The translations under genes were made by a program, and so were the position numbers. Below are positions 32,124 through 48,272 of a stretch of 64,000 nucleotides of DNA, one piece after another. Within the stretch, counting starts at the first letter, position 1, and the number at the start of each line of letters is the position of its first letter. The notes under the pieces were generated by a model. It was given only the letters and a program-made list of their open reading frames with translations. It did not search any database and was not told the origin of the DNA. The DNA comes from Desulfuromonadales bacterium (GTDB taxonomy: Bacteria > Desulfobacterota > Desulfuromonadia > Desulfuromonadales > SZUA-540). The stretch covers positions 192,001-256,000 of the forward strand of contig JAWSUS010000002.1 in assembly GCA_033549025.1 (NCBI GenBank). The letters are read 5' to 3'.

Positions 32124-32260
32124 CAGGACCTCCGCGGCCTCACGCCGTTTCACCAGGCTTTTCAACAGGAAACGCCCTGATGCGCCAAGATACAAAATCC
32201 ACCGGGCAAAGTCCAGAAACTAACCGCCGGGGCTACCCCGCCGAGCCAAAGGATAAGGTC

Positions 32261-32300
32261 GAAAAAGACGAAGGGCGACCCCTTGAGGTCGCCCTTCGTT
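32261..32300 (-). terminator. intrinsic terminator of pckA
   Basis: Minus strand ACGAAGGGCGACC-TCAAGG-GGTCGCCCTTCGT-CTTTTT. Confidence 0.88.
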
Positions 32301-32324
32301 ATATCCGTTGTTTATCAACCAGGC

Positions 32325-33914
<1,590 letters not shown>

Positions 33915-34209
33915 GGTTCTGCTCTCCCATTACCTTGGTTCAAAAGGTTTGAAAAGAAAAATCCAACGATTTCAGACAGACGGCACCCTGAAGTTTGGTC
34001 AAAGGTCGCTCGGAAAGGGCACCGCGCCTTCCCATATTTCTTCGAATTTCCCACAAAAGAGACAATGTTATACCCGTAAAAACCCGGTTCTTTTATCAAG
34101 TTTAGCTCAAATAAAAAAGAAAAAATTGCCTTTTACCCTAAATAAAAAAGCAGATCCCCGGCGACAGCGACTTGCCTTCCTGCCACAATCTACAGCTACT
34201 CGCAATTTT

Positions 34210-34626
34210 TCAATCTGACAGAACTTCTGAACGAACCCGCAGGTAGGCGACGATGGACCAGATCTCCTCTTCGCTGAAATGGGCGCCGTAGGCCGGCATA
34301 ACCGAACCCCGGGAAAGATAAGGCTCAACCGTCTTCCCTTTGCGGATCCGCCAGAACAGATAGGCTGGATCGGCCTGACGGTAGGCCGGAGAGGTAAAGT
34401 TTGGGGCGGGAGGATGGAAAAAATCAGCCCGTTGACTGCGCCCTTCCGCCGGCCTGCCGTGGCACTCCGCGCAAAGCTGCCGGAAAAGGCGGCGGCCTTC
34501 CTGCTGGTTTTCCGCCCGCTGCAGATAACCGTCGGGCGGGGTCACCTTGGGGTAGGACGGCCCTCGGTCGCTGCAGGCCACCACCAGCAGAAGGGAGAGC
34601 CCTGAAACGGCGAAACGGCTAACCAT
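34210..34626 (-). CDS. monoheme cytochrome c lipoprotein
   Basis: Lipobox LVVAC; one CAECH; axial Met in SVMPAY; strong RBS; directly after the hydrogenase protease gene. Confidence 0.85.
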   Translation of the reverse strand: MVSRFAVSGLSLLLVVACSDRGPSYPKVTPPDGYLQRAENQQEGRRLFRQLCAECHGRPAEGRSQRADFFHPPAPNFTSPAYRQADPAYLFWRIRKGKTVEPYLSRGSVMPAYGAHFSEEEIWSIVAYLRVRSEVLSD

Positions 34627-34643
34627 GCGCATCCTTTCTCCCT

Positions 34644-35120
34644 TCAGGCGGCGGCCAGAGAGACTCCCCAGGCAGCCAGCTCGTCGGCGACGGCATCCAC
34701 CACCGGCTCCAAGGCCCGGCCGACCGCCGGACTCAGCTGGAGCCCCGGCTCGATTTCTGCGACCTGCACCCCCCAGACCACGACCTCGGGCGGCAGATGT
34801 CCCTGCAGCTCCGCCACTGCGAGCAGATCCTGCAGTCCCATCTGATGCACGGACAGTTTGCCGGCAAAGGCGCGCGGCACCTCCTCGCCGGTCAGGCGCA
34901 CGATCGTTCCCGCCGCCGTCTGCAGGTCAAGGGCGTCCACAATCAGCAGGCGCTGCACCCCTTCGAGCTGGGGGAGCAGGTCAAGACCCAGGGTTCCGCC
35001 ATCGACCACCTGAACCTCCGCCGGAAAGACGAAGCGCTCCTGCAGTCGCCGCACCACATGCACCCCCAGGGCATCGTCCCCCATCAGCAGGTTGCCCAGG
35101 CCCATCACCAGAATGGCCAC
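34644..35120 (-). CDS. hyaD: [NiFe]-hydrogenase maturation endopeptidase (HyaD/HybD family)
   Basis: GLGNLLMGDDALG; DGGTLG; IVDA; SVHQMG. Start set at GTG 35120 with GGGGAG. Confidence 0.92.
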   Translation of the reverse strand: MAILVMGLGNLLMGDDALGVHVVRRLQERFVFPAEVQVVDGGTLGLDLLPQLEGVQRLLIVDALDLQTAAGTIVRLTGEEVPRAFAGKLSVHQMGLQDLLAVAELQGHLPPEVVVWGVQVAEIEPGLQLSPAVGRALEPVVDAVADELAAWGVSLAAA

Positions 35121-35121
35121 C

Positions 35122-35775
35122 TCAGAGTTCTCCCCGGTCAATATACTTGTAGCCGCCGAAGATGCTGCTCATGGTGCCGTTCATCTCCTTCATGTCCATG
35201 AGCCAGGCACTGTAGATGTGGTTGATGACGAAACCGGCCAACAGCCACATCACCAGATGATGAACGAGGCGCAGGGACTGATTGTCGATGAGCAGCCAGA
35301 CCCACCCGAACAGGGAATCGTAGAGACCGCCGGGCGCATACTGGCCGTAGAGCGCGAAGCCGCTGAATATCTGCACGACGAACAGGGTAAAAACGCCGGC
35401 GTACGCCAGAGTGGCCAGAGCGTTGTGGCCGATCTCGTAGGGAATGCGCGAACCGGTGAAGGTGTAGTAGCGGAAAAATTCGAAGCCGTTCTTCTGTCCC
35501 TTGCGGGTGACCAGGGGCATGAACATGCGCCAGGAGGACCATTCGTTGCCCAGGAAAAACCAGATCATGCGGGCCAGCACGGAGAAGGCAAAGAGATAGG
35601 CGAAGACAAAATGGATAAAACGCATCCAGCCCATGATATAGGCGGATGTCGTGTGGGCGCCGACAAACGGATGGCCGATGTAGATGCCGGTGCCGGAAAG
35701 AACCACCACGGATACCGCGTTGATCCAGTGCGTCAACCGAACCGGCAACTCCCAAACATATAGGATGCGGATCAT
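35122..35775 (-). CDS. hyaC: [NiFe]-hydrogenase b-type cytochrome subunit
   Basis: YVWELPVRLTHW..L..TG.YI; RFIHF; HNAL; LVHH; NHIY. Confidence 0.93.
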   Translation of the reverse strand: MIRILYVWELPVRLTHWINAVSVVVLSGTGIYIGHPFVGAHTTSAYIMGWMRFIHFVFAYLFAFSVLARMIWFFLGNEWSSWRMFMPLVTRKGQKNGFEFFRYYTFTGSRIPYEIGHNALATLAYAGVFTLFVVQIFSGFALYGQYAPGGLYDSLFGWVWLLIDNQSLRLVHHLVMWLLAGFVINHIYSAWLMDMKEMNGTMSSIFGGYKYIDRGEL

Positions 35776-35790
35776 GAGCGGGCCTCCTTG

Positions 35791-37503
35791 TCAGAGAACT
35801 TTCACCTTGACGATCTCGCTGCCGCTCCCGTCGAGCACGTGCACCGCACAGGCCAGGCAGGGATCGAAGGAGTGGATGGTGCGCAGGATTTCCAGCGGCT
35901 GCTCCGGATTGGCAATGGGGGTGCCGATCAGGGCCGCCTCGTAGGGCCCCATCTGCCCGAGGGGATCACGCGGGCCGGCGTTCCAGGTGGAGGGCACCAC
36001 GGCCTGAAAATTGGCGATGGCGCCGTTTTTGATGCGGATCCAGTGGCCCAAGGCGCCGCGGGGCGCCTCATGATAGCCGAAGCCCGCCGCCTCTTTCGGC
36101 CAGGTCGAGGGGTCCCATTTTTCGCCGTTGTGCACCTCGAGGATACCGCGCCCCATGTTGTCGGCGAGCTGGTCGAGCCAGCTCTCGTTCTTCTGGGCCA
36201 GCAGCAGGGTCTCGATCCCGCGGGCGGCGGTGCGGCCCAGGGTGGAAAAGAGCACCTCCGGCCCCACATTCAGCTTGCCGAGCACAAAATCGACCACCTG
36301 CTTTACCTCGGGATGGCCCTTGGCGTAGGCGATGACCATGCGCGCCAGCGGGCCGACTTCCATGGGCTGGTCGAGATAGCGGGGGGATTTGACCCAGGAA
36401 TATTTGGCCTCGGTGTCGAGAAAATCGTAGGGGGGCTTAGGCCCCGTGTACTTGTGCGCGGTTTCACCGTCGTAAGGATGCAGCCCCTTGTCGTCGCCGG
36501 CCTGATAGCTGTACCAGGAATGGGTGACGTATTCGGCGATCTTGGCCTGGTCCATCTCCAGCACATTGGCCAGGTCTTTGCCCAGCACGACGCCGCGCGG
36601 AAACCAGTTGGCCTCCGTGCTGCCACTATTGTCGAGAGGAAAATCCCCATAGGTGAGGAAGTTGCCCACCCCGCCGCCGATGCCGGCCCAGTCCTTGTAG
36701 AAAGAGGCCACGGCCAGCAGATCGGGGATGTAGACCTGCTCGACGAAAGTCCGGGCCTTGCGTAGCAGCTTGCGGATGAAGGCGATCTTGTCTGCGTTGA
36801 GGGCATTCTGGCTGTCGGGATCGACGGGGATGGACATGCCACCCACCAGGAACGTCTGCGGATGGGGGTTTTTGGAGCCGAGAATGGCGTGGATCTTGAT
36901 GATGTCCTTCTGCCATTCCAATGCTTCGAGATAGTGAGCCACCGCCATGAGGTTGGCTTCCGGCGGCAGGCGATAGGCGCTGTGCCCCCAGTAGGCGTTG
37001 GCGAAAGGCCCCAGGCGGCCGGTGCCGACGAAAGCGGCGATGCGCTCCTGGATCGCCTTGAAGTAGGCGGTCCCCGATACCGGCCAGTCGGAGAGGGATT
37101 GGGCCAGCCTGGCGGTCGCGGCCGGGTCGGCTTTGAGGGCGCCGGTAATATCGACCCAGTCGAGGGCATGCAGGTGATAAAAGTGGATCACATGGTCCTG
37201 CACATTCTGGATGCCCATGATCAGGTTCCGGATCAGGCGGGCGTTATCGGGGATCTGAATCCCCAGGGCATCTTCCACGCAGCGAATGCTGGCCATGGAA
37301 TGTACCGTGGTGCAAACGCCGCAAAAGCGCTGGGTAAAATGATGCGCGTCCCGGGGGTCCCGCCCCTTGAGGATGGTTTCGATGCCGCGAAAGGCGGTGG
37401 AGGAGCTCCAGGCATTGGCGATGCGGCCATCCTCCAGTTGGGCCTCGATGCGCAGGTGCCCTTCGATGCGGGTGATCGGATCAACGACGATCTTCTTGGC
37501 CAT
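35791..37503 (-). CDS. hyaB: group 1 [NiFe]-hydrogenase large subunit
   Basis: DPITRIEGHL; L1 motif RFCGVC; L2 motif SFDPCLACAVH followed by a cleavable C-terminal tail. Confidence 0.96.
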   Translation of the reverse strand: MAKKIVVDPITRIEGHLRIEAQLEDGRIANAWSSSTAFRGIETILKGRDPRDAHHFTQRFCGVCTTVHSMASIRCVEDALGIQIPDNARLIRNLIMGIQNVQDHVIHFYHLHALDWVDITGALKADPAATARLAQSLSDWPVSGTAYFKAIQERIAAFVGTGRLGPFANAYWGHSAYRLPPEANLMAVAHYLEALEWQKDIIKIHAILGSKNPHPQTFLVGGMSIPVDPDSQNALNADKIAFIRKLLRKARTFVEQVYIPDLLAVASFYKDWAGIGGGVGNFLTYGDFPLDNSGSTEANWFPRGVVLGKDLANVLEMDQAKIAEYVTHSWYSYQAGDDKGLHPYDGETAHKYTGPKPPYDFLDTEAKYSWVKSPRYLDQPMEVGPLARMVIAYAKGHPEVKQVVDFVLGKLNVGPEVLFSTLGRTAARGIETLLLAQKNESWLDQLADNMGRGILEVHNGEKWDPSTWPKEAAGFGYHEAPRGALGHWIRIKNGAIANFQAVVPSTWNAGPRDPLGQMGPYEAALIGTPIANPEQPLEILRTIHSFDPCLACAVHVLDGSGSEIVKVKVL

Positions 37504-37506
37504 GGC

Positions 37507-38634
37507 CTACTCCTCCTTGTCCCTTTGCACGAGGTTGTCCGATTTGAAGGCATGCCCCTTGCGAAAAGCACTGGCCACGCCATGGGCAGCAAAGGCCGCC
37601 GCCGTTCCCACCGCCAGGCCCACACCGATCTGGTCGGCCGTCACCTCGACCCCGAAGCCCGGCACCTGCGGCAGACGACGGTAGAAGGGGGTCATGGTAT
37701 CCCAGAAACCGGGCTCGGCACAGCCGATGCAGCCGTGACCGGCCATGACCGGCCAGCTGGTGCCCTCGTTGTAGCGAATGGTTGGACAGTTGTGAAAAGT
37801 CTCGGGGCCTTTGCACCCGAGCTTGTACAGGCAGAAACCCTTGCGATGCCCCTCGTCACCGAAGGCCTCGGCGTACTGGCCCGCATCGAAATGGCTGCGA
37901 CGCTCACAGTTGTCGTGAATGCGTTTGCCGTAGGCAAAGAGGGGGCGGCCGAGACGGTCGGTGGCCGGCAGGCGGCTGAAGGTCAGGAAATGGACGATGG
38001 TGGCGGTGAGGTTGTCGACATTCAGAGGACAGCCCGGCAGGTTGATGACGGTGGCGCCGGGGACGGCCTCCTGCACCGAGATGGCACCGGTGGGGTTGGG
38101 GGCGGCGGCCGGCAGTCCGCCAAAGGTGGCGCAGTTGCCCACGGCGATGGTGGCCGCGGCATTGCCGCACACCTTGCGGGCGATGTTCAGGGCGCTGTCG
38201 CCGGCGATGGTGCAGTAGACGCCGCCATCCCCGGCGGGAATGGACCCTTCAACCACGGCAATATACTGGCCCTTGTATTTCTCCATGGCCTGGTGCTTGG
38301 CTTCCTCCGCCTGCTGACCCGCAGCGGCCATGATGGTCTCGTGATACTCCACGGAGAGCAGGTCGAGGAGGATCTCCGCCACAGTCGGCTGATTGGCCCG
38401 CAACAGAGCCTCCGTATCCCCGGTGCACCCCTGGAACTCCACCCAGATCACCGGCACCCGCAGATCTTCCAGCGCCTCGGCCACCCGGGGGACAAAGGAC
38501 AACGGCAGCGCCAGCGTCGCCGTCATCCCCGTGCAGAACTTGATAAAATCACGGCGACTGACACCGCGCGTCTCCCACTTCTGCAGGATCTCCTCCGGCA
38601 GAACAACGGCTTCAGAGGAAAAGTCTTCTTTCAT
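37507..38634 (-). CDS. hyaA: group 1 [NiFe]-hydrogenase small subunit (Tat-exported, membrane-anchored)
   Basis: Tat motif SRRDFIK; Fe-S motifs CTGD, GNCA, PGCP, HDNC, CLYKLGC, WPV..GHGCIGC; C-terminal TM helix. Confidence 0.96.
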   Translation of the reverse strand: MKEDFSSEAVVLPEEILQKWETRGVSRRDFIKFCTGMTATLALPLSFVPRVAEALEDLRVPVIWVEFQGCTGDTEALLRANQPTVAEILLDLLSVEYHETIMAAAGQQAEEAKHQAMEKYKGQYIAVVEGSIPAGDGGVYCTIAGDSALNIARKVCGNAAATIAVGNCATFGGLPAAAPNPTGAISVQEAVPGATVINLPGCPLNVDNLTATIVHFLTFSRLPATDRLGRPLFAYGKRIHDNCERRSHFDAGQYAEAFGDEGHRKGFCLYKLGCKGPETFHNCPTIRYNEGTSWPVMAGHGCIGCAEPGFWDTMTPFYRRLPQVPGFGVEVTADQIGVGLAVGTAAAFAAHGVASAFRKGHAFKSDNLVQRDKEE

Positions 38635-38727
38635 CAGCCCGGCCTCCTCAATTCAAGGTAAAAAAGCAGTGTTCGCATCACCCTAAGCTTCAGACAACAG
38701 CCATCACCCTTTAATCCCAACCCTTCC

Positions 38728-38754
38728 ATTATAGCGGCCCGACCTTCATGTCAA
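38728..38754 (-). promoter_or_regulatory. sigma70-like promoter of the hydrogenase operon (short spacer)
   Basis: Minus strand TTGACA-N15-TATAAT. Confidence 0.5.
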
Positions 38755-38889
38755 GCTTTCACCGGACATTTGTCTCCCCTCTTCGACCTTCCCATTAAGC
38801 CGTTGATCTTAAATGGTTATTTTTCCCATTTACGGACACCTCGCCGGACAGACTGGCGCCTCAGGCCATCTATACAAGAAAGCCTTTGC

Positions 38890-38898
38890 TGTTATACT
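38890..38898 (+). promoter_or_regulatory. extended -10 promoter element for the BCAM0308-archease-rtcB operon
   Basis: TGTTATACT about 40 bp upstream of ATG 38940. Confidence 0.55.
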
Positions 38899-38939
38899 GA
38901 TTTCAGCCTTCACACATGCAGCAGAAAGGGGGAGCGAAC

Positions 38940-39458
38940 ATGCAAAAAGACGTGGGAAAATTCGGCATCAGTGACAAGCGCGGCAGGGTCAAAACGAGTT
39001 CGGATCCTTACATCCCCGAAGAGGGGCGCAAGGAACCATCGCTCTGCAGTGGCTGCAAGGCCGTGTATAAAAACAAGCGGTGGACCTTTGATCCCGACTT
39101 CTACGAAACGGCCAGCAAGGACTCCGGCTCGCACTGGGTCACCTGCCCGGCCTGCCAGAAAATCGAGCAGAAATACGCAGAAGGCGTCGTGACCCTGCGC
39201 GGCAGTTACCTCTGGGAGCATGAAGAGGAAATCCGCAACATTCTCAAGAATGAAGAAACCAGGGCGATGGCCAAAAATCCCCTGGAGCGCATCATCCAGA
39301 TCAGCCGGCAGGACGACGCCCTGGTTGTGGAGACCACCGAGGAGAAGCTGGCGGAACATCTGGGCAGGGCTCTGCACAAGGCCCACCAGGGTGAGATCAA
39401 TGTCTCCTGGACGGAAGACCACGCCAGATGCCGCGTCACCTGGGAACGCGAAGGATAA
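38940..39458 (+). CDS. BCAM0308-family zinc-finger protein (NMD3-like)
   Basis: CSGC...CPAC pair; G.VTLRG; EI.NIL.NEE..NPLERI; VETT.EKLAEHLGRALHKAHQG; RBS GGGGGAG. Confidence 0.8.
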   Translation: MQKDVGKFGISDKRGRVKTSSDPYIPEEGRKEPSLCSGCKAVYKNKRWTFDPDFYETASKDSGSHWVTCPACQKIEQKYAEGVVTLRGSYLWEHEEEIRNILKNEETRAMAKNPLERIIQISRQDDALVVETTEEKLAEHLGRALHKAHQGEINVSWTEDHARCRVTWEREG

Positions 39459-39551
39459 AGACTTGGCCAACCGATCCGCGCAAAGCAACCGCTTCCTTTT
39501 CTCTTCGACCCTTCTTTGCGCTTCGCGGCCAGCGGATGGCCAGGGGTGAGC

Positions 39552-39968
39552 ATGTCCTCCTACCGTCTCCTGGAACATACGGCCGACATGGGCATCGAGG
39601 CGACCGCCGCGACCCTGGAGGAGCTCTATGCGCAGGCCGCCAAAGGACTCATCGCCATTATTTTCGGTGACAGCTGCGGCCCGGCGCTGAGTGACCGCGT
39701 CATCGAACTGGACGGCAGCGACCTCGCCGACCTGCTGGTTCGCTGGCTCAATGAGATTCTCTACCTTGTCGAAGTGGAGCACTTCCTTCCCTGCCAGTTC
39801 ACCCTCGACCCCATCCGGAACCATCACCTGCGGGGCCATGTACGGGGCTTCCAATTTGATGTGGAGGGCGTCCAGGCGGAAAGGGAGGTCAAGGCCATCA
39901 CCTATCACCAGCTCGAGGTTCGCCGCCAGGCTGCGGGCTGGCTGGCTCGGGTCTACGTCGACCTGTGA
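39552..39968 (+). CDS. archease (RtcB activator)
   Basis: Y..LEHTADMGI; LL..WLNEILY; EVKAITYH; C-terminal VDL. Confidence 0.94.
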   Translation: MSSYRLLEHTADMGIEATAATLEELYAQAAKGLIAIIFGDSCGPALSDRVIELDGSDLADLLVRWLNEILYLVEVEHFLPCQFTLDPIRNHHLRGHVRGFQFDVEGVQAEREVKAITYHQLEVRRQAAGWLARVYVDL

Positions 39969-39979
39969 GAGATGGAAAG

Positions 39980-41422
39980 ATGAGCGTTAAAATCGAGCGC
40001 ATCGATGCCTGCCGCTGGCGCATTCCCCGGGAAGGAGACATGCGCACCGAGGGGCTGGTCTTCGCCAGCGAGAAGATGATCGATTTCCTGCGCCAGGAGC
40101 AGGCCCTCGAACAGGTACGCAACGTCGCCACCCTGCCCGGCATTGTCGGCCCCTCCATCGCCATGCCGGACATTCACTGGGGCTACGGCTTTCCCATCGG
40201 CGGTGTCGCCGCCTTTTCGGCGGACGAGGGAGTCGTTTCCCCCGGCGGGGTCGGCTACGACATCAACTGCGGCGTACGCCTGTTGCGTAGCAGTCTTACC
40301 GTGGCGGAGATTCGGCCCGTCGCCCAACAACTGGCCGATACGCTCTTTCGCAACATCCCCTCCGGGATCGGCTCCTGCCGCCAGGATCTCAAACTCAACT
40401 CATCCCAGGAGCTCAAGGTTCTGCGCCAGGGGGCCCGCTGGGCCGTGGAGCACGGCTTCGGCAACGAAGAGGATTTGCTCCACATCGAAGAGGGCGGCAC
40501 CCTTGCCGGCGCCGACCCCGAACTGATTTCCGTTCGGGCCCTCGAACGCGGCCGCGCCCAGCTCGGCACTTTGGGCAGCGGCAATCACTTTCTCGAGGTA
40601 CAGGAGGTGGAAACGATCGAGGATCCGGCCGCGGCAGAGGCTCTCGGCCTTTTCCCGGGGCAGATGACCGTCACCATCCACACAGGCAGCCGGGGACTGG
40701 GCTACCAGGTGTGCGACGACTACCTGCGCCTCATGCAGAAGGCCAGCCAGAAATACGGCATCCATCTTCCCGACCGCCAGCTCTGCTGTGCGCCTCTGTC
40801 CAGCCCGGAAGGCAAGCAGTACCTGGCCGCCATGGCCTGCGCCGCCAACTTCGCCTTCGCCAACCGGCAGCTGATTACCGCCTGGGTGCGGGAATCTTTC
40901 GAGCAGGTGACGGGCAAGGGACCGGGCGACTTGCGCCTCTCCGTTATCTATGATGTCTGTCACAACATTGCCAAGTGGGAGAAACATCCCGTCAAGGGCC
41001 GGGAGATAACCCTGTGCGTCCACCGCAAGGGAGCCACCCGCGCTTTTCCGCCTGGCCATCCCGACACTCCGGCGCTCTACCGGCACATCGGTCAGCCGGT
41101 GCTGATCCCCGGCGACATGGGTCGCTATTCCTATGTTCTGGTGGGGACGCAGGCGGGCTTTGAAGAGACTTTCGGGTCGACGTGCCACGGGGCCGGCCGC
41201 CTTATGTCCCGGCATGCCGCCAAACGTGTCGCCCGCGGCCGCAACATCGAGGCGGAACTGGCCAGACAGGGTATCCTCATTCGGGCCGCCGGGCGGGCCA
41301 CAGTGGCGGAAGAGATTCCGGAGGCCTACAAGGATGTCATGGAGGTGGTCGATGTGGTGCAGCAGGCGGGGATCGGTAAAATCGTGGCCCGGCTGCGGCC
41401 TGTCGTCGTCATCAAAGGCTGA
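39980..41422 (+). CDS. rtcB: RNA 3'-phosphate/5'-OH ligase RtcB (archaeal/eukaryotic-like long form)
   Basis: MPDIHWGYGFPIGGV; GYDINCGVR; GTLGSGNHFLE; HTGSRGLG; HNIAK; HRKGAT; IPGDMG; STCHGAGR; EE.PEAYKDV. Confidence 0.97.
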   Translation: MSVKIERIDACRWRIPREGDMRTEGLVFASEKMIDFLRQEQALEQVRNVATLPGIVGPSIAMPDIHWGYGFPIGGVAAFSADEGVVSPGGVGYDINCGVRLLRSSLTVAEIRPVAQQLADTLFRNIPSGIGSCRQDLKLNSSQELKVLRQGARWAVEHGFGNEEDLLHIEEGGTLAGADPELISVRALERGRAQLGTLGSGNHFLEVQEVETIEDPAAAEALGLFPGQMTVTIHTGSRGLGYQVCDDYLRLMQKASQKYGIHLPDRQLCCAPLSSPEGKQYLAAMACAANFAFANRQLITAWVRESFEQVTGKGPGDLRLSVIYDVCHNIAKWEKHPVKGREITLCVHRKGATRAFPPGHPDTPALYRHIGQPVLIPGDMGRYSYVLVGTQAGFEETFGSTCHGAGRLMSRHAAKRVARGRNIEAELARQGILIRAAGRATVAEEIPEAYKDVMEVVDVVQQAGIGKIVARLRPVVVIKG

Positions 41423-41458
41423 TTTCAGCCTGGAGTGATCTAAAAGAGGGGGATTTTC

Positions 41459-42355
41459 ATGAAAGTATTCGTTACCGGAGGAACGGGATTTGTCGGCACC
41501 GAGATCATCCGCCAGCTCACCGCGGCCGGGCATACGGCCCGCTGTCTGGTCAGGCCGGGGTCGGAACACAAGATGGAGATTCTGAAGGGTGTGGAAATCC
41601 GGCATGGCGACGCCAGCCAACCGGAGACCCTCGTGGACGCCTTAAAAGGCTGTGACGGGGTAATCCACCTCATCGGCATCATTCGCGAATTTCCCCACAA
41701 GGGAATCACTTTCAAAAAACTGCACGTCGAAGCAACCCGCCACATTCTGCAGGCGGCCAGGGAACAGGGCGTCGGCCGTTTCGTGCATATGAGTTCCAAC
41801 GGTACGCGAGAGGGGGCGACCAGCGACTATCACCAAAGCAAATGGGCGGCCGAAGAACTGGTGCGGGATTCCGGCCTCGACTGGACCATCTTCCGCCCCT
41901 CGGTCATCTTCGGTCCCGGTGACCAGTTCATCAACATGCTTGCCGACATGATGCACAAGTTCCCTGTCATGCCCGTCATCGGTGACGGCGCCTACCGCAT
42001 GTCCCCCGTCGCCGTCGAGGATGTGGCCAAGGGCTTCATCCAAAGCCTCAAACTGCCAGAAGCCAGCAGCCAGGTCTACCATTGCTGCGGTCCCCAGGCC
42101 CTTACCTACGATGAGATTCTCGACGAGATCGGGCGGGCTCTCGGCAAAACGTCCGTGGCCAAGCTCCACCATCCCCTCTGCCTCATGAAGCCGGTGGTCG
42201 GCCTACTGGACGGCTTTTCCTGGTTCCCTCTCACCCGCAACCAGTTGGCCATGATGCTTGAGGGCAACGTCTGCGACCCCGAACCCTGGGCCCAAACCTT
42301 CGGAATCAAGCCGACCCCTCTGGCTGAAGGCATCGGCCGCTATCTGTCGTCCTGA
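41459..42355 (+). CDS. NDUFA9-like atypical SDR (NAD(P)-binding Rossmann protein)
   Basis: TGGTGFVG; IHLIGIIRE; F..LHVEAT; YHQSK; RPSVIFG. Confidence 0.88.
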   Translation: MKVFVTGGTGFVGTEIIRQLTAAGHTARCLVRPGSEHKMEILKGVEIRHGDASQPETLVDALKGCDGVIHLIGIIREFPHKGITFKKLHVEATRHILQAAREQGVGRFVHMSSNGTREGATSDYHQSKWAAEELVRDSGLDWTIFRPSVIFGPGDQFINMLADMMHKFPVMPVIGDGAYRMSPVAVEDVAKGFIQSLKLPEASSQVYHCCGPQALTYDEILDEIGRALGKTSVAKLHHPLCLMKPVVGLLDGFSWFPLTRNQLAMMLEGNVCDPEPWAQTFGIKPTPLAEGIGRYLSS

Positions 42356-42358
42356 GGT

Positions 42359-42742
42359 TTATTTCGCCTCTTCCTGCCGCCGGGAGTCCAGGTACTGACG
42401 GATCCCGGCCTGCAGGGCACTGGCAATCAGGTTGGAGCAGTGTTCCTTCTCTGCGGGCAATCCGCCGAGGGCCGCAGTCACTTCGGCATCCCCGAGCGCC
42501 AGAGCCTCAGCCAGAGTTTTCCCTTTGACCAGCTCGCTTCCCATGGACGAGGTGGCGATAGCCGCCCCGCAGCCATAAATCTTGTAGCGGATATCGACCA
42601 GGCGGTCGTCCTCGATTTTGAGCGTGAGCAACAGCGAGTCCCCGCACCCAGGGTCGCCCACCTGCACCAGCACGGTGGGGTCGTCGATAATCCCCACATT
42701 GCGTGGATTGTTGAAATGATCCAGCACCGCTTCGGTATACAT
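42359..42742 (-). CDS. NifU/IscU N-terminal-type Fe-S scaffold protein
   Basis: YT..VLDHF.NPRNVG; GCGD; YGCGAAIATSS; LGGLP.EK.HCS. Confidence 0.92.
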   Translation of the reverse strand: MYTEAVLDHFNNPRNVGIIDDPTVLVQVGDPGCGDSLLLTLKIEDDRLVDIRYKIYGCGAAIATSSMGSELVKGKTLAEALALGDAEVTAALGGLPAEKEHCSNLIASALQAGIRQYLDSRRQEEAK

Positions 42743-42780
42743 ATTCCGGCTCTCCAACCCTTCCCCGTGATGGCCGCCAG

Positions 42781-43092
42781 TTACGGCGACTCTTCTTCTG
42801 CAGGCTCTTCACCGATAACCAGGGCATAGCCTTCGATCAGGGCCTGGGCCGTTTTGCGGCGGGCGCTCGCCACCAGTCGCTGAACGGTGCCACGAGAGAT
42901 TCCCATGCGCCCCCCGGCATCCTCCTGCGTCAGACCGAGCCCGTCACAGAGATGGAGGGCTTCCAGTTCATCGTGGTGTAGAAAGAGCTGCGCCAACTCC
43001 TTCAGCGGAATGCCGGCCGGCTTGAACACCTGACTCACTTCACCCTGAAAAGGGCAGCTGCAGTTACGCGGTTTTTTACTCCGTGGCGACAT
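42781..43092 (-). CDS. DUF134 (UPF0251) helix-turn-helix protein
   Basis: MSPR.KK.R; FKPAGIP; DELEAL.L.D..GL.QE.A..MGISR.T..R....AR.K.A.AL. Confidence 0.92.
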   Translation of the reverse strand: MSPRSKKPRNCSCPFQGEVSQVFKPAGIPLKELAQLFLHHDELEALHLCDGLGLTQEDAGGRMGISRGTVQRLVASARRKTAQALIEGYALVIGEEPAEEESP

Positions 43093-43107
43093 GCGGCGTC
43101 CTTCCCC

Positions 43108-44103
43108 TTAGCCGGCGCACTTCTTTGGCTGTTTCTGCGCTGCGGCCGGGCCAAACACCCGGTCGGTATATTTGACGTACCAGGCCGCCGATTTAACCTG
43201 CACCACATAGGCCAGACTGATAACCAGAGCCGCCTCGGAACCCGCCGTCCCAAAGGCGTTGATGGCCACGGCCAGGGCGATGGAGAGGTTGCGCATGACC
43301 GTGCCGTAGACCATGGCGATGGCGTCTTCACGGGGGAGCAGCATCTTCCCAATCACCGTGCTGAGCACATAATTGAACAGGTATAGCAGCAGCAAAGGGA
43401 TAAAGATCGCCACCAACTGTTCGGGGTGGGCCGCCACCGCCCGGGCTTTGAGGGCCAGGGCGATAAAGACGATCCCCAGCACGCCCAGCACCGACAGGGA
43501 CGGGAAGAGCGGTGCCCAGGTGGTCTGAAAACGCTCCTGGCCGTAACGCCGGACGAGGGCGCGTTGGGTGAAATAACCGGCGATCATGGGCAGAAAGACC
43601 ATGAGCCCAATCTGCTTGAGAATACTCAGCAGTTCGACCTCGACCTGCGCTCCCATGAGGCCGCGCACGTAAAAAGGCGTAGCCAGAGAACCGACGATCA
43701 GCCCGACCACCGTCATCTTCACCGCCGCGGCCAAATTCCCCTTCGCCAGACCGGTCCAGGAGATGGTCATGCCGCTGGTCGGCACCAGAGCCGCCAGCAG
43801 CAGACCGAGGGCCAGGTAGGGGCTGTTTGGAAAGAACAGCTGGCCAAAGCCGAAGGCCACAAAAGGGATGATGGCGAAATTAACCACCTGGGTCAGCACC
43901 TGGGCCTTGGTATCCCCCCCCTCAAGCACCTTGCGGATCTTCAGGGTCACCATCATCGGGTAGACCATGAGAAAGGTGAAAGGGAGAATCAACGCCTTCA
44001 GAGGCCCCGCCTCCGCCAGGAGGCCATAGACGAAACCGGCGACCATCATCACCGGAATGGCGATGACCAGATTTTTACTGATCTTGTTCAACAGATTCCA
44101 CAT
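43108..44103 (-). CDS. ACR3/bile acid:Na+ symporter-family transporter
   Basis: About 10 TM helices; MVYPMM; PTSGMTISWTGLAKGN; RNLSIALAVA. Confidence 0.85.
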   Translation of the reverse strand: MWNLLNKISKNLVIAIPVMMVAGFVYGLLAEAGPLKALILPFTFLMVYPMMVTLKIRKVLEGGDTKAQVLTQVVNFAIIPFVAFGFGQLFFPNSPYLALGLLLAALVPTSGMTISWTGLAKGNLAAAVKMTVVGLIVGSLATPFYVRGLMGAQVEVELLSILKQIGLMVFLPMIAGYFTQRALVRRYGQERFQTTWAPLFPSLSVLGVLGIVFIALALKARAVAAHPEQLVAIFIPLLLLYLFNYVLSTVIGKMLLPREDAIAMVYGTVMRNLSIALAVAINAFGTAGSEAALVISLAYVVQVKSAAWYVKYTDRVFGPAAAQKQPKKCAG

Positions 44104-44124
44104 GAATTGCCACTCTTCCTTCCT

Positions 44125-44538
44125 CTACTTGCGTGCCTCTTCCAGTATTTCCCGTATTTCCCTAAAGCTCTGATCAAGGGAAGTCTAAAACTCGTCATCC
44201 TCGACCAGGGCCGCCACCAGTTCCCGGGCGTAACTGAGAAAGCGGATCTGAGTCTTGCCTTCTTTGGTGAAGGTCATGATGAACTTGGGCATCAGCACCG
44301 CCCGCTCCGGGTTTTTCCGCAGACTCTGAGCGGCCCGCGCCGGCTTGCAGATCTGAATCATGTGCAGATCAAAATCCTCGCCCACCTCCAGCCCATGGGC
44401 ACTGAAGGTATGCGCCATGGCCATTTTATCCTCATTGTGGATGGTAAAACCCCGCCGACCGGCGGCCAGGGCCAGATCCTCCACGAAAAGGGGGAGCTTC
44501 TTGTCCGTTTCCGCTTTGTACAAGGTTGCCTGAGTCAT
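44125..44538 (-). pseudogene. DUF302-like protein interrupted by an in-frame TAG at 44185-44187 (nonsense allele, read-through or sequencing error)
   Basis: The ORF stops at ..LVEDDEF* but continues in frame as TSLDQSFREIREILEEARK* to 44125. IQICKP..A...L...P motif typical of DUF302. Confidence 0.65.
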
Positions 44539-44565
44539 GGATTTCGTCACCTTTTGTAATCGATT

Positions 44566-44952
44566 CTAGTGTTCGTGTCCACAGCCGTGACCCTGGCCAT
44601 GGCCACCGCAGGTTCCCTGCAGGGTCAACTCGGGCAGGTTGTCTTCGCGCAGACAGGCGAGGTTGTCGGCCACCGTCACCCCTTGTGCCTGGAAAACCTT
44701 GAGGCCAGCGCGGTTCAGGCCCATGAGAGCACCGCTGCCGATACCGCCGACGACAATGGCGTCCACCTGCTGCCCGCCGAGGGCCCTGAGCGGCCGGCAC
44801 TGACCGTGCACATGATCTTTGTCACCGTTGTCCACGGCCTCCACGGCACGGCTCTCCGTATCGACGACCACGAACAGGGGGGCCGAACCGAAATGGCCAA
44901 AGACCACACTCTCCATCCCTTCATTACTCTCTACCGGAAAACAGATTTTCAT
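44566..44952 (-). CDS. NifB/NifX-like (FeMo-co-binding family) protein with His/Cys tail
   Basis: MKICFP..V.GHFGSAP.F; VDAIVVGGIG.GA; tail CGGHGQGHGCGHEH; ATG 44952 with AAGGAGG. Confidence 0.9.
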   Translation of the reverse strand: MKICFPVESNEGMESVVFGHFGSAPLFVVVDTESRAVEAVDNGDKDHVHGQCRPLRALGGQQVDAIVVGGIGSGALMGLNRAGLKVFQAQGVTVADNLACLREDNLPELTLQGTCGGHGQGHGCGHEH

Positions 44953-44974
44953 GGCGTACCTCCTTGAGCTGTTT

Positions 44975-45015
44975 TGTGCATATGCACATTTAAACCGAGT
45001 CGCCATGATTGTCAA
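44975..45015 (-). promoter_or_regulatory. promoter with overlapping perfect palindromic operator TGTGCATATGCACA
   Basis: -35 TTGACA at 45010-45015 (minus strand); 14-bp palindrome at 44975-44988 over the -10/start region. Confidence 0.75.
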
Positions 45016-45100
45016 CAGCTTTTTCACCTGGATTAGTGTATTTTTGATTAAAAGAATTGCTGCACTTTATACCGTGCTTTAACGTTCGAGGGAATCCTCT

Positions 45101-45188
45101 TCGAAAAAACCTATCGCCCGACCCCAAAAAAGACCCTGCCGCATAGACTTATTCTTCCCTATTACTTTTTTTACATAGGTTTTTTCGA
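45101..45188. promoter_or_regulatory. pair of 14-bp inverted repeats (LysR-type sites)
   Basis: TCGAAAAAACCTAT (45101-45114) and ATAGGTTTTTTCGA (45175-45188), each containing T-N11-A. Confidence 0.6.
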
Positions 45189-45220
45189 TAGGTGACATCG
45201 GCTGATGCCTCTGCTTTCTC

Positions 45221-45249
45221 TTGACGAACAATACCTTTCATGTCAGGAT
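45221..45249 (+). promoter_or_regulatory. sigma70-type promoter of the rhodanese operon
   Basis: TTGACG-N17-CAGGAT with an extended -10 TG. Confidence 0.5.
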
Positions 45250-45320
45250 GTGCCGTCGCTCACATTCCATATCACTGCGGGCCTGGCCCGACCTGTCTCA
45301 TTGACGAAAGGAGTATCCTC

Positions 45321-45737
45321 ATGTTCAAACGCCTCACGATGACCCTCGCACTTACCCTGCTCCTGACCGGCACTGCGCTGGCCACCAACATGATGGAAGA
45401 GGACGCGGTGAAAAACCTGCTGGAACAGGATAATGCCTTGATCCTGGTCGACATCCAACCCGCAGACGCCTTTGCCAAGGCGCATATTCGCGGCTCACTG
45501 GAAACCAACGCCTTCCCTGCCAAAACCACTGAAGAAAAGGCCCGGCTGGATCAGGTGCTGCCGGCGATCGAGACCTCCGACCTGCCCGTCGTGATCGTCT
45601 GCCCGCGAGGAAAAAGCGGCGCCAAAAACAGTTACGACTATCTGCTCTCCAAAGGGGTACCGGAAGACCGTCTCTACATCCTGGAGGGCGGCATGGCCGA
45701 CTGGCCCTTTGACGAACTGCTCGTAGAAGGCCGCTAA
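45321..45737 (+). CDS. exported single-domain rhodanese (sulfurtransferase)
   Basis: Signal peptide; LVDIQ..F...HI.GS; active-site loop CPRGKSG; LEGGM..W. Confidence 0.9.
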   Translation: MFKRLTMTLALTLLLTGTALATNMMEEDAVKNLLEQDNALILVDIQPADAFAKAHIRGSLETNAFPAKTTEEKARLDQVLPAIETSDLPVVIVCPRGKSGAKNSYDYLLSKGVPEDRLYILEGGMADWPFDELLVEGR

Positions 45738-45742
45738 CCTTC

Positions 45743-46822
45743 ATGGGGGCGGCTCAACCCGATAATCTGGGGGGTCTGTGGGAAGAGATGGCCATCCTCT
45801 GCACGTCCTGCGGCGTCTGCGTCACCCCCTGTGCTTTTCTGCGGCGCGAGGGGACGCCGGCAGAAATCTGCCGGCGACAACCGCCGGCGGATCAACTGGA
45901 CAAGGCCTACGACTGCTCCCTGTGCGGGCAGTGTGACGCCCTCTGTCCGGAAGGGCTGCGTCCCTCGGCTCTCTTTCTCGCCATGCGCCAGGCCCTGGTA
46001 CGACGCGGGGGTCTTGACACCAAAGCATACGCCGGCTGGCTGCGCTACGAAAGGCTCGGAAGCCACCCGCTCTTCCGTCGGCACCTCATTCCCCCGGGCT
46101 GCACCAGCGTCTTCTTCCCCGGCTGTTCACTCCCCGGCTCACGCCCCGAAGGGGTGCGCGACCTCTATCATCGCCTGCGCCAGCAGGATGCGTCCATCGG
46201 CCTCGTCCTTGACTGCTGCGGCAAAATCTCCCATGATCTCGGCCGCGAGGAGTACTTTACCGCCCTGTTCAACCGACTTGCCAACAGTTTGCTGGCGCGG
46301 GGTGTCCGCCGCGTCCTTACCGCCTGCCCCGGCTGCAGCAAAATATTCCGGCACGCCGACTCACCCTTCGAGGTAAAAAGCGCGTACGAAGTGTTGGCAG
46401 CAGGAGCAGGGGAATCGACGATCAGGGAGACGGCACCGACGGTGGCTATCCACGACCCCTGTCCGGCCCGCTTTGACGCCGCCCAGCAGCAGGCGGTGCG
46501 CACCCTGGTAAGCCAAGCCGGCTGGCGCATCGAGGAATTGCCCGAAAGCGGCCGCACCACCCGCTGCTGCGGCCAGGGGGGAATGGTGGAAGGCAAACGA
46601 CCCGGCACGGTCAGCAGCGAGGCCCACCTCATCGCCGCCCAGGCCCAGGGACGCCCGCTGGTCACGTCCTGTGCTGCCTGCGCCCATGCCCTCGAACAGG
46701 CCGGCCCCGTCGCCCATGTCGCGGACCTCATGGCCGGCGGGACCGACTTTAGTCCCAAGGCGCCACCCTCGGCCGTCCGCTGGCTGAACCGCCTCGGACT
46801 GCGCCTGCGGAGGAGGCTATGA
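45743..46822 (+). CDS. Fe-S oxidoreductase with a 2x[4Fe-4S] domain and two CCG domains (GlcF/HdrD-like)
   Basis: CTSCGVC..PC; CSLCGQC...CP; FFPGC; CCG; ACPGC; HDPC; CCG.GG; SCAAC. Confidence 0.88.
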   Translation: MGAAQPDNLGGLWEEMAILCTSCGVCVTPCAFLRREGTPAEICRRQPPADQLDKAYDCSLCGQCDALCPEGLRPSALFLAMRQALVRRGGLDTKAYAGWLRYERLGSHPLFRRHLIPPGCTSVFFPGCSLPGSRPEGVRDLYHRLRQQDASIGLVLDCCGKISHDLGREEYFTALFNRLANSLLARGVRRVLTACPGCSKIFRHADSPFEVKSAYEVLAAGAGESTIRETAPTVAIHDPCPARFDAAQQQAVRTLVSQAGWRIEELPESGRTTRCCGQGGMVEGKRPGTVSSEAHLIAAQAQGRPLVTSCAACAHALEQAGPVAHVADLMAGGTDFSPKAPPSAVRWLNRLGLRLRRRL

Positions 46823-47469
46823 AACGTCTTTCCCTGCGCCTGTTTTTGCCTCTCCTGCTCATGCTGAATGTTGCCGGTTCCGCCCTGGCGGCAGACGGAT
46901 CCTATCGCTTCGGCAGCGACGAGATAATCGGCTGGGAAGTCAGGTCCTTTAAGGGAAATACGGATTATCGGCTGGTGGAGGAAGCGGGGCGCCGGGTTCT
47001 GCAGGCCAAGGCCAGGGGCACCGCCTCCGGCCTGGTGCGGAAGATCACCTTCGACCCTCGCGAATACCGCTACCTGCGCTGGTCCTGGAAAATCGAGGGC
47101 ACCGTCGCCGGCGGCGACGCCCGCACCCAAAAAGGGGATGACTACGCCGCCCGGGTCTACGTGGTCTTCCCCGGCCGTTTCTTCTGGCAGACCAAGGCTC
47201 TCAACTACGTCTGGGCCAACCGGTTGCCCCAGGGCGAGTTCACGCCCAACGCCTTCACCGCCAATGCCCGCCTGCTGGCCGTACAGTCCGGCGCCGCCAA
47301 GGCGGGACAGTGGCTTGACGAACGGCGTGACCTCGTGGCCGACTACCGTCGTCTTTTCGGGGAAGAGCCGCCCATGGCCGGAGCGCTGGCCATCATGACC
47401 GACGCCGACAACACCGGCGCCACCGCCACCGCCTGGTATGGCGACATCATCCTGTCGAAGAGCCCATGA
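46819..47469 (+). CDS. DUF3047 family exported protein
   Basis: Signal peptide; F.G.T.Y; L.WSWK; GDDYAARVYV.F; LNYVW; W..ERRDL..DY...FG; IMTDADNT. Confidence 0.9.
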   Translation: MKRLSLRLFLPLLLMLNVAGSALAADGSYRFGSDEIIGWEVRSFKGNTDYRLVEEAGRRVLQAKARGTASGLVRKITFDPREYRYLRWSWKIEGTVAGGDARTQKGDDYAARVYVVFPGRFFWQTKALNYVWANRLPQGEFTPNAFTANARLLAVQSGAAKAGQWLDERRDLVADYRRLFGEEPPMAGALAIMTDADNTGATATAWYGDIILSKSP

Positions 47470-48155
47470 AGTCCAGACACCTTCTCCTGCTGCTCGTCGC
47501 CGCCCTCCTCGCCGGCCTCTTTTTCGCCCTGGACCTGGGGCGTTTCCTCACCCTGGAAGCCCTGCAGGACAACCGGCAGCGCCTGCTCGTTGTCTACCGG
47601 GAGCATCCGCTGCTGACCGTCGCCGCTTTCATGGCCCTCTATATCGTGCAAAGCGCGCTCTCCCTGCCCGGCGCCATCATTTTCGCCCTGTCGGCCGGGG
47701 CCATTTTCGGCCCCTGGTGGGGGACCGTCTATGCCGTCACCGCCGCAACCATCGGCGCCACCCTCTGCTTTCTCGCCGTGCGCACTCTCTGGCACCGGCA
47801 GATCAGCGAACGCTTCGGCGCCCGCCTCGAAGGCCTCAACCGCGAACTGGAAGCGAGCGGTCTGGGTTACCTGCTCTTTGTGCGCCTCGTCCCCGTCTTC
47901 CCCTTCTTCCTTATCAACCTGGCGGCCGGGCTCACCCGCCTGCCGCTGCGCACCTTTGTGCTCGGCACGCTGGTGGGGATGCTTCCCGGCGGCTTTGTCT
48001 ACGTCAACGCCGGTGCCGGTCTGGCCTCTATCACCCGTGTGGGCGATATCGCCTCCCCCCGCGTCCTGGTTTCCCTCGCCCTCCTGGGCCTGCTCGCCCT
48101 CGTTCCCACCCTCTACACCCGTTTTAAAAACGGCCGGCGCCGAAACGCTGCTTGA
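47466..48155 (+). CDS. TVP38/TMEM64 (DedA/VTT) family membrane protein
   Basis: ALSLPGA....L.AGAIFG; ATIGAT..F; RLVPVFPFFLINLAAGLT; GMLPG. Confidence 0.92.
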   Translation: MKSRHLLLLLVAALLAGLFFALDLGRFLTLEALQDNRQRLLVVYREHPLLTVAAFMALYIVQSALSLPGAIIFALSAGAIFGPWWGTVYAVTAATIGATLCFLAVRTLWHRQISERFGARLEGLNRELEASGLGYLLFVRLVPVFPFFLINLAAGLTRLPLRTFVLGTLVGMLPGGFVYVNAGAGLASITRVGDIASPRVLVSLALLGLLALVPTLYTRFKNGRRRNAA

Positions 48156-48218
48156 CCTCCTGACAGATATCCGCTCTATCCATCCCGTCAGGACCAAGTG
48201 TGTTTTCTCTCCCCCTTC

Positions 48219-48254
48219 AAAAAAAATGGGCGCCCCGGAAGGGACGCCCATTTT
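48219..48254. terminator. bidirectional intrinsic terminator
   Basis: AAAAAAAATGGGCGCCCC-GGAA-GGGACGCCCATTTT between convergent genes. Confidence 0.85.
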
Positions 48255-48272
48255 GACGGACGGTGTTTGCGC

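Follow-up and report, generated by a model that had tools for sequence, protein, structure and literature searches.

The first gene of a four-gene operon from a Desulfuromonadales bacterium encodes what profile searches and a predicted structure identify as a truncated homologue of NMD3, reduced to its second zinc clef plus an eL22-like domain. NMD3 is the 60S export and peptidyl-transferase centre (PTC) maturation factor of yeast and humans, with homologues in archaea. The bacterial protein, here called the gene 1 protein, is a member of the BCAM0308 family and is encoded ahead of an archease and an archaeal-type RtcB RNA ligase. We propose, with a probability of about one half and on the basis of sequence, modelling and analogy, that it may act in dormancy or quality control by binding the large ribosomal subunit, under regulation shared with rRNA repair and in a gene setting resembling that of Balon. 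Because the protein is predicted to share its fold with the part of Nmd3 that plugs the ribosome, a ribosome-binding protein expressed beside the ligase at times of stress is a likelier product of this gene than an adaptor for the ligase.

The window (the whole stretch of DNA analysed, 64,000 nucleotides) holds four open and co-oriented genes on the + strand, and open reading frames and family searches agree with the preliminary description on their positions and identities: a BCAM0308-family gene (gene 1; 38940..39458, 172 aa), an archease gene (39552..39968, 138 aa), an rtcB gene of the Thermus/Pyrococcus type, without an intein (39980..41422, 480 aa), and a gene for an NDUFA9-like NAD(P)-binding short-chain reductase (41459..42355, 298 aa). 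The gaps between them are 93, 11 and 36 nt. A purine run at 38925..38934 (+ strand) is the ribosome-binding site of gene 1 and, together with the homologues, which begin at the same residue, places the start at 38940 and rules out one at 38916. The archease (E 1.7e-37) has its HTAD motif, K114 and terminal Asp conserved, and RtcB (E 4.8e-176), whose nearest solved structures are those of T. thermophilus (1e-185) and P. horikoshii (1e-183) RtcB, has D64, C97, H203, H234, H328 and H403 intact. Both the catalytic-site motifs of RtcB and the metal-site motifs of the archease are present and invariant across 33 sequences. The reductase, whose top PDB matches are mostly NDUFA9/39-kDa subunits of complex I (E 7e-24 to 1e-14), is the usual but not constant fourth gene, found downstream of rtcB in 25 of the 32 close loci with room for it, and is likely a co-transcribed passenger.

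In its adjacent archease and archaeal-type rtcB genes, with only the 11 nt gap between them, the locus resembles the archease–RtcB 'tRNA splicing' operon (PMC3973293), for which the legend to Fig. 1B of the same paper (Desai et al. 2014) lists Pelobacter propionicus and Syntrophus; here, however, the operon is led by a BCAM0308 or mini-NMD3 gene and usually continues with the NDUFA9-like reductase. With the E. coli rtcBA-rtcR and Ro60/Y-RNA operons it has an RtcB-family ligase in common. The earlier report that RtcA, RtcR and Ro60 are absent from the window extends to the whole genome (100% complete; search covering all but 9464 bases), with 0 matches to RtcA, RtcR or Ro60/TROVE. No Rfam family was found within 30000–50000 and no tRNA in the window.

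Membership of the BCAM0308 family is clear, as the gene 1 product scores 161.6 bits against NF040826 (lxa_BCAM0308; cut-off 100, model 9–153 of 153). Against Pfam NMD3 (PF04981) it scores 35 bits (cut-off 24.9, E 1.4e-8), a match limited to residues 67–156, equivalent to model positions 132–220 of 243. The predicted structure (pLDDT 90.5) consists of a basic N-terminal tail of low confidence (residues 1–20), a zinc clef (C36/C39/C69/C72) and an eL22-like domain (79–172). All of the motifs quoted in the preliminary description are in the sequence, but CPAC is the second CxxC pair and not a third site. With this model, Nmd3 ranked first in Foldseek (E 3.4e-4). In a search of 48,161 chains the top three were Nmd3 residues 154/155–250 (Z 10.7, 9.3 and 9.2) with rmsd 2.0–2.4 over 83–84 residues, the best at rmsd 2.0 over 83 residues; next came a designed protein (Z 8.1), and the best other natural chain reached 7.1. 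When 1000 chains were re-aligned to the model, the top 14 were all Nmd3. The likeness to NMD3 that had been noticed by eye in the CxxC and eL22-like part is thus borne out by a Pfam score above cut-off and by three fold searches, including the structural comparison suggested at the outset. In full-length Nmd3 chains, residues 33–172 of the model align with Nmd3 55–250 (126 residues, Z 9.4, rmsd 3.8), so that clef and domain follow one another in the same order and with the same fold. Judged by end points only, the structural match starts at model residues 31–36, equivalent to Nmd3 53–58, and one starts with C36 at residue 58; the zinc ligands of the second zinc site of Nmd3 have been described (PMC6393466). 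We infer that the gene 1 protein binds zinc.

What has been lost is considerable. Unlike NMD3, the gene 1 protein has 172 aa, is bacterial, patchy and dispensable, and is missing the N-terminal zinc finger and nearly all of the eL31-like body with its histidine thumb, only four cysteines being conserved; the C-terminal SH3 and OB (eIF5A-like) domains are also missing, the chain stopping at the point that corresponds to residue 250 of Nmd3. In NMD3, the N-terminal zinc finger contacts eIF6 and the SH3/OB domains anchor the protein in the E site. The two CxxC pairs are separated by 22–41 residues in the family (median 29), as against about 85 in yeast Nmd3. Sequence searches of the PDB returned only zinc-finger and repeat noise, Nmd3 being absent from the profile search at E<=10; no longer or fused relatives were found among candidates of 350–2000 aa, which is weak evidence. 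In M. jannaschii, one control run gave a sub-threshold NF040826 match that other runs did not repeat. The missing SH3/OB domains and N-terminal finger, together with an identity of 11–16% to yeast and human Nmd3, speak against a ribosome role for the modelled protein, and a shared fold shows no function.

Among 128 homologues C36, C39 and C69 are invariant and C72 is 98% conserved. Apart from the cysteines, conservation is highest at basic or aromatic residues of surface type in the eL22-like domain. The positions of R117, R165 and R170 are basic in 94–95% of the family, and a basic stripe runs along helix 2 (136/140/143/147, 73–79% K/R/H). The family has a median pI of 8.8 and an N-terminal tail of net charge +3; the protein of this locus is near neutral (pI 6.3). 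In Nmd3, the eL22-like domain occupies the P site, where it lies against helices of the rRNA. Passages of one structural study describe this domain as reaching into the PTC, with its sheet contacting H80 and helix 2 residues K204 and N205 contacting PTC RNA (PMC6579518).

The mechanism that we favour would run as follows. The cut-down NMD3 homologue probably binds in the P site of the large ribosomal subunit, where it would shield or idle the PTC during growth arrest. Archease activates archaeal-type RtcB, and the archease of this operon is predicted to do likewise, the ligase then resealing broken rRNA or tRNA. The tie between gene 1 and RtcB would be one of shared regulation for a shared job, the provision of usable ribosomes, and not one of a complex. 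A bolder version is less likely: BCAM0308 proteins might form a widespread and so far undescribed bacterial class of P-site- and PTC-plugging proteins derived from the NMD3 core, which cap the 50S subunit when growth is arrested and which in Desulfuromonadales keep damaged subunits out of translation while archease and RtcB reseal the rRNA. Were this so, bacteria would have an NMD3-type checkpoint, which would hint at the ancestral job of NMD3.

The analogy comes from Balon, a proven hibernation factor with the same kinds of neighbours, including Hsp20 and RtcB (PMC10901736), which as Rv2629 belongs with the RtcB Rv2631 to the DosR block Rv2623–Rv2631 (PMC5309233). Like Balon/Rv2629 and HPF, the gene 1 protein would be a small putative ribosome ligand from stress clusters with Hsp20 and RtcB, and Rv2629 precedes Rv2630–Rv2631 as gene 1 precedes archease–rtcB. 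We take Rv2630 to be an archease. The fold is unrelated to that of Balon, which is aeRF1-like and occupies the A site, and binding is proven for Balon but predicted here.

NMD3 has so far been studied as an archaeal–eukaryotic ribosome maturation factor, whereas the bacterial form of ~170 residues keeps just the PTC-contacting domain and has turned up in about 30% of the genomes sampled in two phyla (47/151 and 119/401), as well as at the Burkholderia low-oxygen locus. Databases already label the family NMD3-like. Literature searches found no paper on a bacterial NMD3 homologue or on NMD3 together with RtcB and archease, and the linkage may be in print in surveys of RNA repair. If the protein does bind the 50S subunit, it would be a new hibernation or quality-control factor using a site that Balon does not. 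It would then also be a small, easy protein for studying the job of NMD3 before nuclear export. Should it not bind ribosomes, the locus would come down to an ordinary ligase operon carrying two passengers. The operon is, besides, a tractable system in which the natural substrates of bacterial archease-dependent RtcB could be sought.

In some other clades, the family sits in lxa/DosR-type stress clusters and only sometimes near RtcB or RtcA. Of 30 loci examined in another phylum, 26 have Hsp20 no more than 1.5 kb from the gene, accompanied by PRTase, USP and CBS genes, and annotated plasmid loci have Hsp20, USP, BON, FtsH or class II RNR near the gene. Many other loci have unrelated housekeeping neighbours, and in 12 of 42 clustered loci the gene is upstream of mraZ–mraW. 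HPF was within 10 kb in 1/80 genomes among the matches listed and in one of five annotated plasmid loci; two queries found none in the remaining loci, and no general adjacency to HPF emerged. At the Burkholderia lxa locus, low oxygen raises the expression of the neighbouring genes BCAM0307 and BCAM0309 by 89- and 130-fold (PMC3721108). The clade studied here differs from that locus in having archease–rtcB rather than USP/BON/FtsH and no lxa/Fnr motif upstream.

Some neighbours would suit a stress protein with a general, zinc-dependent role as RNA binder or RNA chaperone, which acts on tRNA or free RNA ends and no longer has the ribosome function of NMD3; we regard this explanation as unlikely. 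RtcA is upstream of the gene in two loci outside the order (L109 and L118) and two genes downstream in a third (L023), a YbaK-like ORF (read by eye) lies beside it in L118, an AmmeMemoRadiSam radical SAM enzyme is near it in five loci, and S1-domain, TlyA-family and pseudouridine-synthase genes occur among the neighbours; the conserved basic surface and tail and the missing E-site anchoring domains point the same way. The RNA-enzyme neighbours are scattered, however, and with 78/80 genomes of the class having it, the radical SAM gene is uninformative; the sole domain to have survived complete is the one with which Nmd3 touches PTC rRNA.

The preliminary description had instead cast the gene 1 protein as an adaptor for RtcB/archease, bound to them and directing the ligase to nicked rRNA or tRNA, a role we consider improbable. 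The conserved operon that it predicted does exist within the order: gene 1 leads archease–rtcB in 17 of 22 carriers and in 38 of 41 close GTDB loci, and these arrangements fall in one clade of a quick tree, in 51/56 rows of which gene 1 comes first. The presence of the gene also agrees with that of archaeal-type rtcB in 33/40 genomes of the order and in 32/40 of the other orders of the class, where they do not form a single operon. Beyond the RtcA loci, separate cases of proximity include a divergent archease–rtcB near the gene in L137, outside the order, rtcB at 2.1 kb in one genus (3 genomes), and rtcB within 10 kb in 4/80 genomes against about 0.5 expected, a count in which one rtcB is a fragment and some genomes are related. 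This loose but recurrent nearness to RNA repair outside the order also supports the reading that we favour. The operon linkage nevertheless arose in one ancestral event; it is found in 0/46 phylum-wide carriers and is missing at 38 of 39 distant GTDB loci and all 30 loci of the other phylum. Five relatives in the order keep archease–rtcB with gene 1 gone from the site (four genomes have no family match, the fifth has the gene elsewhere), and three carriers are without archaeal-type rtcB. In the phylum sample RtcB is present both with the gene (44/46) and without it (32/34), and the class-level agreement falls to p=0.08 with one family removed. In P. horikoshii, archease and RtcB act as a two-protein system (PMC3973293). 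An adaptor role for the family is not supported, because the linkage is a single event, broken both ways within the order and missing elsewhere.

Improbable too is a proteostasis or metal/redox stress protein with no RNA role (a zinc/thiol sensor, or an FtsH/Hsp20 adaptor), fixed before archease–rtcB by one insertion and shared stress regulation, since the FtsH directly beside the gene in Burkholderia and L008 and the Hsp20 beside it in Azospirillum and L057, which with PCMT near it in four loci and the four conserved cysteines (98–100%) favour this account, are general members of lxa/DosR-type clusters (PMC3721108), and the best-conserved remaining positions are those basic or aromatic ones of the eL22-like surface.

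The operon has one shared promoter-like element in front of it, as first described. An extended −10 element (TGnTATACT; TGTTATACT, 38890..38898, + strand) precedes gene 1, and of 53 close loci 44 have TGnTATA[AC]T in the 130 nt upstream, where shuffled sequences give 0.14. In three of the five relatives without gene 1 at the site it lies upstream of archease, with a plain TATAAT in a fourth. A second weak promoter-like site at 39965–39993 is within chance (2 found, against 0.7), and a terminator scan found no + strand terminator, 4/4 sites being on the − strand. A 1418-nt contig from a sediment RNA library, with 37 differences, covers 38955–40372, from gene 1 to rtcB, and RNA depth was low at 38670–38936 in 4/4 runs; contigs cannot show a single transcript, and these data are therefore only compatible with co-transcription. 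Within 130 nt upstream, an lxa-type TGA-N6-TCA box was found in 2/53 close loci (1.33 in shuffles) and a TTGA-N6-TCAA (Fnr/Anr) box in 0/53, on which Fnr/Anr control was rejected; low-oxygen control is thus not shown for this operon.

A NiFe-hydrogenase operon diverges from gene 1 across a shared intergenic region of 305 nt (38635–38939), as had been noted, but the redox stress link drawn from it is not supported. The hydrogenase is upstream in just 13 of 33 close loci, has a separate promoter-like site facing it (TTGACA, 15 nt, TATAAT; 38728..38754, − strand), and no Fnr/Anr box is present at the close loci (0/53). The hydrogenase still adjoins archease–rtcB in four of the five relatives where gene 1 is gone, and is an inherited gene-order neighbour rather than part of the module.

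The BCAM0308-family gene (gene 1; 38940..39458, + strand; 172 aa) opens an operon of four open, co-oriented genes, being followed by archease (39552..39968), rtcB (39980..41422) and an NDUFA9-like reductase gene (41459..42355), with gaps of 93, 11 and 36 nt in the window sequence. Profile searches assign its product to the BCAM0308 family (NF040826, 161.6 bits against a cut-off of 100) and the others to archease, RtcB and an NAD(P)-binding reductase; the nearest relatives of the RtcB are the T. thermophilus and P. horikoshii enzymes, and those of the reductase are NDUFA9 subunits of complex I. The extended -10 element reported upstream of the operon (38890-38898) is kept in 44 of 53 close loci versus 0.14 in shuffles, and the reductase gene lies downstream in 25 of 32 close loci. 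RtcA, RtcR and TROVE partners, noted earlier as missing from the window, had no match in a search of the whole genome. An RNA-library contig covers gene 1 through rtcB, which is compatible with co-transcription and is no proof of it.

Profile and model comparisons identify the gene 1 product as a predicted NMD3 homologue, genuine but truncated. Residues 67-156 match Pfam NMD3 with a score that exceeds the cut-off, and homologue names in JGI and UniRef already read NMD or Nmd3; the likeness is therefore already in databases. With a structure model built from 128 sequences (pLDDT 90.5), Foldseek ranked Nmd3 first (E 3.4e-4). The top three hits of a second, independent search of 48,161 chains were Nmd3 residues 154/155-250 (Z 10.7, 9.3 and 9.2), and re-alignment of 1000 chains gave Nmd3 as all of the best 14. 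Nmd3 chains with a modelled N-terminus lengthen the match to residues 33-172 of the model and 55-250 of Nmd3. By the domain map in the available sections of PMC6579518 and PMC6393466, the matched part is the second zinc clef and the eL22-like domain. The resemblance to NMD3 that the preliminary description saw in the C-terminal half thus holds for these parts but not for the rest: the first finger, eL31-like body and SH3/OB domains are absent, and the product is therefore not filed as an NMD3 orthologue, a label that we rejected. Counting against homology are an identity to Nmd3 of just 11-16% and the failure of sequence searches of the PDB with the gene 1 product to retrieve Nmd3. CxxC spacing in the family is 22-41.

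In Nmd3, the eL22-like domain reaches into the PTC via its sheet and helix 2 (PMC6579518, in part), and this PTC-entering domain is the one retained in the gene 1 product. Helix 2 of the bacterial family is basic along one face (a stripe at positions 136, 140, 143 and 147; 73-79% K/R/H); R117, R165 and R170 are basic in 94-95% of members, the N-tail is basic in 73% and the median pI is 8.8. Judged from sequence, these four features would fit RNA binding; the window's own product has a pI of 6.3. We propose, with a probability of about one half, that the gene 1 product sits at the 50S P site, which it would idle or shield during growth arrest; gene 1 would have entered the ligase operon once, because it and the ligase would share a promoter and a task, the upkeep of ribosomes. 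This role is modelled on Balon, for which hibernation is proven, whereas the role of gene 1 is predicted by analogy. Balon is found beside Hsp20, RaiA and RtcB (PMC10901736, in part), and its homologue Rv2629 lies in a DosR block that ends with the RtcB Rv2631 (excerpts of PMC5309233). The basic features would also suit a general RNA binder; the PTC-entering domain points to the P site, and general binding is possible, if rather unlikely.

Linkage of gene 1 to archease-rtcB is genuine yet local. Among 80 genomes sampled across the class (Desulfuromonadia), the operon occurs in 17 of 22 gene 1 carriers of the order Desulfuromonadales versus 0 of 19 carriers of other orders; across the phylum (Desulfobacterota) it occurs in 0 of 46, one of which has rtcB 4.4 kb off on the opposite strand. 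Conservation across genomes holds within the order and not in these wider samples. Of 152 GTDB loci, 80 were retained, several with short flanks (41 close, at 55% identity or more, and 39 distant): archease lies downstream in 38 of the 41 close loci and rtcB in 37 (a contig end cuts one short), and just 1 of the 39 distant loci has archease-rtcB, in divergent orientation. All 51 operon rows of a quick tree (150 rows; 24 near-identical loci, L150-L173, excluded) fall inside a single clade of 56 (SH-aLRT 97), which argues for one origin of the operon and a few losses.

Gene 1 and archease-rtcB are also uncoupled in both directions. Four genomes of the order have archease-rtcB and no family match, and in a fifth the gene is on a different contig; at four of these five sites archease and the hydrogenase are still 311-404 nt apart, three retain the -10 element and a fourth has a plain TATAAT. 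Archaeal-type rtcB is absent in three gene 1 carriers. Presence and absence of gene 1 and rtcB are concordant in 33 of 40 genomes of the order and 32 of 40 from other orders of the class (Fisher p about 1e-4 in each set, although related genomes are not independent); the second drops to p=0.08 once one family is removed. Phylum-wide, RtcB is present in 44 of 46 genomes with the gene and 32 of 34 without. An adaptor bringing RtcB and archease to nicked rRNA or tRNA at the ribosome under redox stress, as the preliminary description had it, would suit the operon of the order; set against this two-way uncoupling, it is doubtful.

Coupling to redox stress is unsupported, because the hydrogenase is preceded by a promoter-like site of its own and the gene 1 operon lacks an upstream Fnr box. 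That site, before the small subunit gene (38728-38754, - strand), pairs a perfect TTGACA and TATAAT over an unusually short 15-nt spacer and was missed by a standard scan. The NiFe-hydrogenase operon (34213-38634, - strand) encodes small and large subunits, cytochrome b and a maturation protease, assigned by eye, and is followed by a cbb3-type cytochrome c gene, found by profile search; the hydrogenase is upstream in 13 of 33 close loci. A PEP carboxykinase gene adjoins this region, an order common to many Desulfuromonadales. Genes on the - strand at 42359-45027 converge on the gene 1 operon across a 3-nt gap: a NifU/IscU-like gene and a DUF134 HTH gene, assigned by profile search, followed by a gene for an ACR3-like transporter and one that is NifB/NifX-like, both named by eye.

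Outside the operon clade, members of the family occur either alone or as part of stress clusters. A second phylum, whose centre genome is labelled Betaproteobacteria yet nests with Nitrospirota in the quick tree, has the gene in 119 of 401 genomes. Its 30 top-scoring loci are close relatives of one another; 26 of them have Hsp20 at a distance of at most 1.5 kb, PRTase, USP or CBS genes occur there too, and none has archease/rtcB. Five annotated plasmid loci (of 13 matches) have Hsp20, USP, BON, FtsH and class II RNR, and HPF once; many other loci have unrelated neighbours. In the available text of PMC3721108, lxa is compared to the DosR regulon and genes flanking BCAM0308 are strongly induced in low oxygen, BCAM0308 itself being unnamed; an orthologue appears in a differential-expression table in PMC4981469 (seen in part). 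Such contexts would suit a stress protein acting apart from RNA; set beside the conserved basic positions of the eL22-like domain, that reading is improbable.

Looser ties to RNA repair come back in separate lineages: RtcA lies near the family gene at loci L023, L109 and L118, archease-rtcB lies near it at L137, and three genomes of a single genus have rtcB at a distance of 2.1 kb. Within 10 kb, rtcB occurs in 4 of 80 genomes (one a fragment; about 0.5 expected) and HPF in 1 of the same 80.

The archease-RtcB pair (PMC3973293, in part) and its ligase operon are already known, as are the BCAM0308 family and its NMD3 label in databases. Literature searches, covering main texts and leaving one key RNA repair survey outside their reach, found no paper on bacterial NMD3 or on the linkage of gene 1 to archease-rtcB; NMD3 is unmentioned in the accessible portions of PMC6514570 and PMC4275035.

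L118:4739-9820 and L109:3702-8289, a second RNA-end-processing context of the family, share an order in which RtcA comes first, then BCAM0308, then an ORF like a small class II ribonucleotide reductase; L109 has an archaeal-type SAM synthetase-like ORF between the first two, and L118 has YbaK-like and USP-like ORFs, named by eye, besides. An AmmeMemoRadiSam radical SAM gene (TIGR04337) adjoins the BCAM0308 gene at L023, L024, L025, L028 and L059 and in genome G167, and lies at 3.5 kb in G187. At L038, L042 and L043 (G217, G219 and G213), an opposite-strand S1-repeat gene separates the BCAM0308 gene from rtcB, with PCMT on the other side. A Ralstonia megaplasmid (L176) has an unannotated HPF-like ORF (11455-11739, - strand; tblastn E 1.6e-6) about 1.1 kb from the BCAM0308 gene and an annotated HPF at 5.3 kb. 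Genes of L079, L081 and L115, labelled Chloroflexota, Pedobacter and Betaproteobacteria, nest in Desulfuromonadales or Nitrospirota clades of the quick tree, and these records are likely mislabelled or misbinned. Genome G494 has eight family matches, several with stops, and paired copies occur in many genomes of its phylum.
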